This document shows, in pieces, positions 1 through 864 of a DNA stretch of 864 bases (its first letter is position 1; the number at the start of each line of letters is the position of its first letter). The translations under genes were made by a program, and so were the position numbers. Below the pieces are notes generated by a model, which saw nothing but the letters and a program-made list of their open reading frames with translations, ran no database searches and was not told the DNA's origin. The stretch is taken from NCBI RefSeq assembly GCF_003334335.1, contig NZ_QOWQ01000142.1, one strand, 5' to 3'. This DNA comes from Escherichia coli (GTDB taxonomy: Bacteria > Pseudomonadota > Gammaproteobacteria > Enterobacterales > Enterobacteriaceae).

Positions 1-204
1 GGGACAACGCCACGCTCCGTTAACGCGGTAAACCCCGGTGTGTATCGTTTTTGATTATCCCCGCACACTCGCGCAGAGGAGTCTCCCGGTAGGGCTGCGG
101 TCTCTGTTCATGTGGGAATACGGCGACGATACTGCGCAAAGACATGCTTCAGAAATACATAAGTAAACTAAAATATTGTATCTCTGTGGCTAATTACGTA
201 AATT

Positions 205-228
205 GGTGGCTTGGCCCCTTTAGCCACC
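205..228 (-). terminator. Candidate stem-loop, possibly an intrinsic terminator, about 35 nt downstream of the Rz stop
   Basis: GGTGGCT (205..211) and AGCCACC (222..228) form a perfect 7-bp GC-rich inverted repeat around a 10-nt loop. On the minus-strand transcript the stem is followed by AAUUUACGUAAUU, a weak and interrupted U-tract. On the plus strand no U-tract follows. Confidence 0.25.
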
Positions 229-262
229 GGCAAATCTTCAGCGGATTATCCTTGGCCGGTTT

Positions 263-736
263 TTATCTGAGGCATTGCTCACGAATGTATAGCTGTGCCC
301 CTTCCAGCTGCTTCTGCATTGTCATCAACCGTTCTCTGAGGATGAAATAATCCCGTTCAGCGGCGTCTGCCAGTCTGGGGCCGGTTGCATTATCCACGCC
401 GGAGGTGGTGGGGGCTTCACGCACGGAGCCTGGACAGGTGGCGTTGATCCGCAGGCGCTTACGACCAGCGGCAACGTCAGCGCGAAGAGTTTCATTTTCA
501 GCTCTCGCATCGGCTAATTCCCTCGAGTATTTTGCATCGAGCGCAGCAACATCGCGCTGGCGCACCTGCATATCAGTAATGGTTGCGTTCGCCAGCTTCA
601 GTTCACTGGCTTTGTTATCGCGCTGCGCTTTGTAGGTAATCGCGTTATCACGGTAATGGTCTGTTGCCATCCACAGCGCTCCACAGGCCACCAGCAGAAT
701 AACGATAAACGCGGAAAGCATTCGGTTTATGTTCAC
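263..736 (-). CDS. Rz: Rz-family i-spanin (inner-membrane spanin subunit, annotated in many genomes as phage endopeptidase Rz/RzpD-like)
   Basis: The 157-aa ORF starts at GTG 736..734 and ends at TAA 265..263. It has a short N-terminus with one Arg, then a hydrophobic transmembrane segment ([19 protein letters not shown]), then a charged, Ala/Arg/Glu-rich periplasmic domain. From memory it aligns closely with lambda/P22 Rz: motifs [75 protein letters not shown] and a C-terminal EQC are all shared. Two periplasmic Cys are present (INATC and EQCLR), matching the disulfide-forming Cys of lambda Rz. An alternative start is ATG 721..719, giving 152 aa; neither start has a strong Shine-Dalgarno. 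Confidence 0.9.
325..510 (-). CDS. Rz1: Rz1-family o-spanin (outer-membrane lipoprotein spanin subunit), embedded in the +1 frame of Rz
   Basis: The 61-aa ORF (ATG 510..508) lies wholly inside the Rz gene in the +1 frame. It has a lipoprotein signal peptide with a charged n-region (MRELKMK), a hydrophobic h-region ([10 protein letters not shown]) and a lipobox VSA|C (Cys20, codon 453..451). The mature 42-aa peptide is very proline-rich (11 Pro) and carries a second Cys (Cys30). From memory, the mature segment [29 protein letters not shown] is nearly identical to lambda Rz1. GAGGG lies 9 nt upstream of the ATG. An alternative start is ATG 495..493 (MKLFAL..., 56 aa). Confidence 0.85.
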
Positions 737-864
737 CCCAGCAGCCCCGACGAAGACAACATCATCCAGGCCATGGAAAGAAAAAGAGCAACCAGCATTA
801 GTGAAAATGAAATGCCGACAATTACACAGAGGATCTTCGCCAGCGTTATGAGTTTGTCTGACAT
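733..864 (-). CDS. Hypothetical small single-pass membrane peptide (43 aa) upstream of and overlapping the Rz start; function unknown
   Basis: The ORF runs from ATG 864..862 at the window edge to TGA 735..733 and encodes [43 protein letters not shown]. It has a short polar N-terminus, a hydrophobic stretch of about 28 residues consistent with one transmembrane helix, and a short Ser/Gly tail. Its stop overlaps the Rz GTG start in a GTGA arrangement, which suggests translational coupling. The ORF was too short for the supplied ORF track. Its ribosome-binding site lies outside the window, and the ATG could be internal to a longer ORF. Confidence 0.35.

Follow-up and report, generated by a model that had tools for sequence, protein, structure and literature searches.

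Module exchange and overlapping-frame constraint as probable sources of uneven divergence from lambda in an Escherichia coli prophage Rz/Rz1 pair

The spanin locus and its setting

The window analysed here, a stretch of 864 nucleotides from Escherichia coli (contig NZ_QOWQ01000142.1 of assembly GCF_003334335.1), forms the end of the lysis cassette of a lambdoid prophage, with the genes on the minus strand (Table 1). Rz1 (o-spanin) lies wholly within Rz (i-spanin) and out of frame with it (offset of 226 nt, i.e. the +1 frame). The GTG start of Rz (736..734) overlaps the stop codon of the upstream ORF (GTGA), and an alternative ATG start (721..719) is the one chosen by RefSeq, giving a protein of 152 aa. 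The upstream ORF, which stands outside the spanin pair, corresponds to the RefSeq hypothetical protein WP_001280932.1, matched phrog_4906 ('unknown function'; E = 2e-23) and reached a Kyte-Doolittle maximum of 2.89 at residues 11-29.

Table 1. Position of the genes, modules and segments in the window, with nucleotide identity to lambda and the number of window-lambda differences at Rz codon positions 1/2/3.
Feature	Position	Strand	Identity to lambda	Differences (1/2/3)	Basis or remark
43-aa hydrophobic ORF	733..864	-			ORF list; directly upstream of Rz
Rz (i-spanin) ORF, 157 codons	263..736	-			ORF list, Pfam, PHROG
Rz1 (o-spanin) ORF, 61 codons + stop	325..510	-			ORF list, Pfam, PHROG
Rz N-terminal transmembrane module, codons 1-26	659..736	-			nonhomologous to that of lambda
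Rz central block (HYRDN... to ...MQKQLEG), all of Rz1 inside	301..658	-			lambda-homologous by alignment
Rz C-terminal tail module + stop	263..300	-			further diverged from lambda, apparently reassorted independently
Rz N-terminal/TMD codons	656..736	-	45%		no homology
Rz 5' periplasmic part (Rz-only)	511..655	-	88.3%	3/1/13	
Shine-Dalgarno-like GAGGGA	519..524	-			8 nt 5' of Rz1 ATG; read from pairwise alignment
Rz1 signal peptide, codons 1-19, lipobox VSA/C	454..510	-	77.2%	3/3/7	overlaps distal end of Rz coiled-coil 1
Rz1 Cys20-Pro29, lipobox Cys + flexible linker	424..453	-	60%	1/3/5	overlaps start of Rz L2 hinge
Rz1 functional core, Cys30-Gly61	328..423	-			overlaps mutationally silent Rz hinge
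Rz1 Cys30-stop	325..423	-	88.9%	8/2/1	
Rz 3' end	263..324	-	69.4%		

Rz matched the Pfam family PF03245 (Phage_lysis; residues 31-155, model positions 1-125 of 126; E = 1.5e-48) and phrog_13 (Rz-like spanin; E = 1.5e-73). An N-terminal transmembrane segment, preceded by Arg5, was predicted from hydropathy (Kyte-Doolittle 19-mer maximum of 2.46, residues 6-24), and the two periplasmic cysteines Cys101 and Cys155 aligned with lambda Cys99 and Cys152. Rz1 matched PF06085 (residues 20-60 of 61, model positions 1-40 of 41; E = 1.2e-21) and phrog_3198 (E = 6.9e-31), and possessed a lipoprotein signal recognized by pattern, with a basic N-region, a hydrophobic core and the lipobox V17-S18-A19-C20. 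The mature protein was proline-rich (11 Pro in 42 residues), with PPPPP at residues 33-37, and its Cys30 aligned with lambda Cys29; a penta-proline and a Cys available for disulfide bonds between molecules are o-spanin features as defined in PMC5295617.

The preliminary description of this DNA had quoted peptides of Rz1 and Rz and compared them with those of lambda. The Rz1 ORF exists and translates exactly as quoted, and the quoted peptides and lambda sequences proved accurate on comparison. The mature protein had, however, been taken to begin at 'CVKPP' (Cys30). The lipobox, the Pfam match from residue 20, and the lambda protein, whose signal sequence comprises residues 1-19 and whose Cys20 carries the lipid (PMC5295617), place its start at Cys20 instead.

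Several E. coli chromosomes carry prophage DNA that matches the window at 100%, and the Escherichia phages PhiR12_1, PhiR12_2 and PhiR12_5 are 99% identical to it across its whole length. In E. coli JE86-ST05 (NZ_AP022815), the gene order was class II holin, lysozyme, two small ORFs and then the genes of the window, followed downstream by lambda-like terminase, portal and protease genes; PhiR12_1 had the same holin/lysozyme-then-Rz arrangement. RefSeq labels Rz, the final gene of this holin/lysozyme cassette, 'lysis protein', and the exact protein is already found under that name in public databases (180 contigs), as is the exact Rz1 protein under the name 'Rz1 family lipoprotein [Escherichia coli]' (~1000 contigs). 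According to Kongari et al. (2018, PMC6139136), embedded o-spanins often go unannotated and wrongly placed i-spanin starts are common. Both problems were present here, with Rz1 uncalled and the Rz start inconsistent, and the locus thus illustrates lasting annotation faults of this type.

No NCBIfam family was matched by Rz, Rz1 or the 43-aa ORF. Searching the entire window against Rfam (E <= 1) gave no match, and a scan for terminators was likewise negative. A hairpin 3' of Rz (window 206-229) was dropped from consideration, the 101-nt region folding no better than shuffled sequences (z = -0.59).

Divergence from lambda in the two overlapping frames

Outside Rz, no homology to lambda was found either upstream, where lambda has R and the window the 43-aa ORF, or downstream, where lambda has bor. 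Across the homologous block, identity to lambda was heterogeneous (chi-square p = 0.003-0.007), and the unevenness is therefore real, beyond chance. At the protein level, Rz1 was identical to lambda Rz1 at 10 of 19 residues in the signal peptide (residues 1-19), at 3 of 10 residues between Cys20 and Pro29, where one indel was also present, and at 29 of 32 residues from Cys30 to the end (signal peptide and linker versus core, Fisher p = 0.0002). As mature Rz1 starts at Cys20, its first ten residues show the strongest divergence in the whole protein.

Uneven divergence had been pointed out in the preliminary description, and these tests support it, although the diverged Rz N-terminus lies at ~659..736, beyond the interval 325..510 to which the observation had been assigned. 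The wording 'nearly lambda-identical' for mature Rz1 holds for the protein from Cys30 but not for the DNA, as the Rz1 core resembled lambda no more closely in DNA (88.9%) than did the 5' periplasmic stretch coding for Rz only (88.3%).

The distribution of the nucleotide differences over codon positions was then compared between segments (Table 1). In this arrangement, Rz1 codon position 3 coincides with Rz position 1, and Rz position 3 with Rz1 position 2. In the region of the Rz1 signal peptide, seven of the 13 differences fell on the Rz wobble position (Rz1 position 2), whereas in the Rz1 core eight of 11 fell on the Rz1 wobble position. This flip was significant between signal peptide and core (Fisher p = 0.02) and more so between everything upstream and the core (p = 0.0005).

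Substitution rates were estimated by the Nei-Gojobori method, which was not designed for overlapping frames and gives noisy dS on segments as short as these (10-33 codons; 30-145 nt). The Rz-only 5' part had a dS of 0.41 and a dN of 0.065 relative to lambda. Over the signal-peptide codons of Rz1, dS was 0.51 and dN 0.17 in the Rz frame, while in the Rz1 frame dN exceeded dS (0.29 and 0.21, respectively). In the Rz1 core, the Rz1 frame had a dS of 0.39 and a dN of 0.057. Overall, silent-site divergence from lambda was ~0.4 in whichever frame was constrained, throughout the central block. In the Rz1 linker, 9 of 27 aligned positions differed (33%), in addition to a 3-nt indel; this rate is near the silent-site p-distance (pS of 0.31-0.37 elsewhere), as would be the case if both frames are relaxed there. 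The low dN of the Rz1 core relative to its dS, together with the switch of the constrained frame, agrees with the purifying selection on the C-terminal domain of the o-spanin that had been proposed beforehand as one of two explanations.

The frame bias was repeated in the phage pairs lambda-3W, window-3W, lambda-phiSG1, window-phiSG1 and 3W-phiSG1, where the differences in the signal peptide fell on Rz1 position 2 and those in the core on Rz1 position 3. Since the contrast between signal peptide and core recurs in distant pairs, it is a property of the family and not a junction specific to one pair. Among 104 unique alleles, the codon-position spectrum also differed between the Rz-only 5' part and the Rz1 core (p = 0.007); for the signal peptide versus the core alone, the population mutation counts were too small (p = 0.44), and the argument is carried by the codon-position tests on single and multiple pairs. 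Identity between P22 and the window was 75% under the signal peptide and 52% in the Rz1 core, the reverse of the lambda pattern. P22 has a different Rz1 type and was rejected as an uninformative comparator for a lambda-like junction; the better conservation of its signal-peptide region is expected if Rz coiled-coil 1 is the conserved target.

The other explanation proposed beforehand was a recombination junction inside the cassette. If placed within Rz1, it would make the signal-peptide and linker DNA a mosaic patch from a donor more distant than that of the flanks, which we regard as unlikely. The profile itself would fit such a patch, with identity to lambda falling from ~88% to 77%, then to 60%, and returning to ~88%. 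Moreover, relatives carried block-like alternative haplotypes in the Rz1 linker and core, those of the linker lying exactly where identity dips, and PhiR49_2 encoded a hybrid Rz1 in which a lambda-type signal peptide and linker precede a 'QPAPD' core of the window type. Crossovers within the gene thus do take place in the population. On the other hand, silent divergence in the constrained frame was similar in the signal peptide (0.51) and its flanks (0.41 and 0.39), and the 33% difference of the linker equals the silent p-distance, as for unconstrained DNA of equal age. The contrast and the codon-position flip also recurred in every pair tested, distant ones included, and the dip matches regions of both proteins that are experimentally silent (PMC5295617). 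With silent divergence uniform across the boundary and the flip found family-wide, a junction between the Rz1 signal peptide and core on the window lineage was abandoned. The contrast within Rz1 is best accounted for, from these substitution patterns, by selection acting through a switch of the constrained frame, and no junction is needed. A small ancient patch may be present in the Rz1 linker.

Junctions of the transmembrane and tail modules

The identity plot along the gene showed non-uniform divergence from lambda with an abrupt breakpoint at window 657-661 (204-208 on the reverse complement), just 5' of the HYRDN codons (maximum chi-square of 53.8, reached in 0 of 300 permutations), where identity rose from 45% to 88% within ~5 nt. 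It is here, and not between the Rz1 signal peptide and core, that the proposed recombination junction inside the cassette was located. The position corresponds to the boundary between the transmembrane domain (TMD; residues 1-24) and the periplasmic domain of lambda Rz.

The junction was further examined in the 104 unique alleles, which were obtained from 160 IMG/VR loci and named phages. The lambda, window and 933W types of TMD converged at one nucleotide position, just before CATTACCGTGATAAC. At least nine combinations of TMD, middle and tail were found among 180 loci. The lambda TMD was joined to a P22-type remainder in HK140 and 3W, to an HK620-type remainder in PhiR70_1 and HK620, and to a lambda middle with a YIRTQC tail in PhiR49_2; the window TMD was joined to a P22-type remainder in phiON-2011. 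E. coli SCU-108 combined the 933W TMD with the lambda middle and Rz1 and the window tail, and phage 689R5 a lambda-like TMD with a window-like middle and the window tail. That lambda Rz functions with an artificial TMD (PMC5295617) explains the free exchange of this segment. Together, the alleles strongly support window 657-661 as a true mosaic joint, at which the TMD module is swapped as a unit among lambdoid phages.

It is very improbable that no module was swapped and that the Rz N-terminus diverged fast in place, as a transmembrane helix needing only hydrophobicity. The function retained with an artificial TMD (PMC5295617) does imply a weak constraint on TMD sequence, and the Pfam Phage_lysis model also leaves the TMD out. 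Divergence in place does not account, however, for a rise in identity over ~5 nt, nor for a mismatch that extends upstream into a different gene (the 43-aa ORF versus lambda R). In the relatives L050 and L057, the TMD was 94-100% identical to that of the window, though the 5' periplasmic segment was 90-95% identical; in phiON-2011, the TMD was 81% identical and the P22-type remainder 52-72%. The lambda TMD was likewise found, with its protein sequence nearly unchanged, on P22- and HK620-type remainders, and the co-inheritance of TMD type and central-module type was not constant. The data likewise gave no support to the idea that the 43-aa ORF and the TMD module are closely coupled in inheritance, as relatives with a 77-82% similar ORF had a 933W-type TMD.

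A second, weaker breakpoint was detected near the 3' end of Rz (window 300-333), its value being reached by 6 of 300 permutations (p ~0.02). Relative to lambda, the Rz-only 3' part was near silent saturation, its pS of 0.84 exceeding the value of 0.31 for the 5' part (Fisher p = 0.005); ~10 synonymous sites underlie the tail junction. Many relatives were 98-100% identical by segment to the window up to window 297 (568 on the reverse complement); past this position they differed at 14 of 34 positions and lacked the next ~100 nt. The window tail was shared, at ~92%, with prophages in ~480 E. coli genomes, where it was joined to other middle modules, while most relatives having the window TMD bore a YIRTQC-type tail. 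Judged by these comparisons, the tail is a third module of Rz, apparently reassorting separately from the remainder of the gene.

Chance fluctuation over short segments is the least credible account of the unevenness: the segments are indeed only 30-145 nt long and some tests were marginal (second breakpoint, 6/300; population counts, p = 0.44), but it is contradicted by the heterogeneity along the block (p = 0.003-0.007), the protein contrast (Fisher p = 0.0002), the first breakpoint (0/300) and a codon-position flip (p = 0.0005) replicated in independent pairs.

Proposed reading and comparison with known systems

The unevenness between window and lambda is thus quite probably due to module exchange at the Rz TMD, and at the tail, combined with a partition of constraint between the two frames of a functional-looking lambda-family spanin pair. 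From its sequence, Rz would be an inner-membrane protein with an N-terminal TMD, two coiled coils and a hinge, and Rz1 an outer-membrane lipoprotein; both are presumably expressed and would lyse cells as in lambda. Lambdoid Rz would be a three-part mosaic composed of a TMD module, a central module with Rz1 and a short C-terminal tail, reassorting at two conserved stretches, one just after the TMD and the other, MQKQLEG, before the tail. Homologous recombination at these stretches is the likely route of exchange. The window Rz would then combine a TMD unrelated to that of lambda, a central module at ~0.4 substitutions per silent site and a further diverged tail.

Within the overlap, each stretch of DNA would in essence work for a single protein of the pair. 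Where the Rz1 signal peptide is encoded, conservation would act on the Rz frame, which specifies the end of coiled-coil 1, and the signal peptide would take up the Rz wobble changes. In the Rz1 linker (Cys20-Pro29), both frames would be free of constraint. From Cys30 onwards, the Rz1 frame, encoding the penta-proline/AWIM/...LNGIIS core, would be conserved and the Rz hinge would take up the Rz1 wobble changes.

More tentatively, Rz could be a three-cassette gene whose anchor and extreme C-terminus are freely swapped at the two conserved stretches (one being MQKQLEG), while the central segment, coding for Rz1 and for the Rz parts that act with it, is passed on as one co-adapted unit. The TMD might move together with the small, putatively translationally coupled membrane ORF upstream of it, both belonging to a unit for lysis timing or compatibility. 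We hold this extended scheme to be possible but doubtful; if true, natural variation could be used as an existing collection of domain swaps for the study of spanin function.

As an embedded spanin pair the locus is a textbook case, and both the system and the principle are already known. As in the window, lambda Rz closes the lysis cassette, and Rz1 lies in its +1 frame with the same relative start and a Shine-Dalgarno-like element upstream (AAGGAG at the position aligned with GAGGGA). The two also share the lipobox Cys20, a second Cys (Cys30 in the window, Cys29 in lambda), an Rz1 core identical at 29 of 32 residues, and an Rz periplasmic domain ~80% identical with both periplasmic Cys kept. 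They differ in the unrelated TMD module and the upstream neighbour (R in lambda, the 43-aa ORF in the window), in a one-residue insertion in the Rz1 linker of the window accompanied by an extra Rz residue (CPGS in the window, CQ-S in lambda), in the tail (TQKYINEQCR in lambda, a different tail of 11 residues in the window), and in bor, present downstream in lambda and absent from the window.

The Stx phage 933W was closer, its central module being 88-95% identical by segment to that of the window (83% over the 30 nt of the Rz1 linker), and the Rz1 of the 933W/PhiR12 type, like that of the window, read MRELKMKL...CGSTPP...ISSSE(R/N)G. In contrast to the window, 933W possessed another TMD (MNRVLCVVII...) and a tail of the lambda type, and its Rz was followed downstream by bor. 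More generally, lambdoid phages are known for a mosaic exchange of modules with abrupt transitions between related and unrelated DNA and many module combinations, as in the HK97/HK022 and HK620 comparisons. In the window, unlike in this general picture, the junctions are intragenic and lie at domain boundaries of Rz, not between genes.

For the overlap itself, the closest reference is the near-saturating mutagenesis of the lambda pair, in which the silent domains of Rz1 were the sensitive domains of Rz and the reverse (Cahill et al. 2017, G3, PMC5295617). In that map, mature Rz1 falls in the silent L2 hinge region of Rz, Rz1 residues 32-54 form the key functional domain, and function was kept when Rz1 residues 25-30 were replaced by a Gly-Ser linker or Rz residues 100-115 by Ser-Gly repeats (PMC5295617). 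It matches the pattern of the window in signal peptide, linker and core, with no conflict. The map was obtained by mutagenesis of a single lambda allele, whereas the present analysis concerns natural variation, which independently reproduces the same reciprocal constraint. The locus also shows how a real mosaic junction, at the TMD boundary, may be told from an apparent one produced by constraint in overlapping frames.

Annotation of Rz and its upstream neighbor

The annotation of the Rz start and of the embedded Rz1 gene is inconsistent between records. RefSeq begins Rz at the ATG at position 721, which yields a product of 152 aa, and the record of Escherichia phage PhiR12_1 begins it at the ATG at position 670, with which the transmembrane domain (TMD) would be lost. 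The ATG of the 933W-type Rz aligns with the GTG at window position 736. Rz1 is annotated in neither the RefSeq nor the PhiR12_1 record.

After the endolysin region, Rz is preceded by a small hydrophobic ORF assigned to phrog_4906 (a family labelled as of unknown function). The TGA that ends this ORF shares bases with the GTG start codon of Rz in the motif GTGA, which suggests that the two genes are translationally coupled. Database matches retrieved approximately 1000 contigs carrying the exact sequence of this ORF, and its co-inheritance with the Rz TMD type was not strict among the relatives compared.

Features of the lysis region, in window coordinates
Feature	Position	Strand
Non-coding DNA between Rz and the terminase small subunit gene	1..164	
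Stretch of ~100 nt immediately 3' of the Rz stop	165..262	
Rz1 (o-spanin)	325..510	-
Range of Rz starts	670..736	-
Hydrophobic ORF (43 aa)	733..864	-

Sequence between Rz and the terminase gene

Most close relatives lack the stretch immediately 3' of the Rz stop, which shows as a gap in the alignment; it accompanies the Rz tail of the window type. Segments of this stretch occur in ~480 E. coli genomes at ~92% identity. No gene is annotated in this stretch, scans for Rfam families and for terminators gave no match there, and its predicted fold was no better than that of shuffled sequence. In many relatives without these ~100 nt, the adjoining stretch toward the terminase gene was present at ~80% identity; it contains only short unannotated ORFs. 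By analogy with lambda, cos should be located farther downstream, beyond the window.

Variant Rz genes and cassette layout in relatives

In three IMG/VR relatives (L007, L061 and L072), the Rz frame ended in ...TKLAFYYPED(I/T/NA) rather than ...QC(L)(R/K), an ending that points to a 3' end that is different or fused, or to loss of the C-terminal Cys. In phage 1720a-02 (L177), a gene annotated as 'putative endopeptidase' combined a window/933W-type middle module and Rz1 with an unrelated, non-hydrophobic N-terminus. As a chloramphenicol acetyltransferase gene adjoins it, this gene probably represents an Rz that was engineered or disrupted and lacks its TMD.

In the NZ_AP022815 prophage, which carries the window context (L001), a YdfR-family pseudogene and a hypothetical gene on the opposite strand are both located between the holin and lysozyme genes (L001 4159..4500). 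The lysis cassette of this prophage is therefore interrupted, whereas the S-R-Rz genes of lambda are contiguous.
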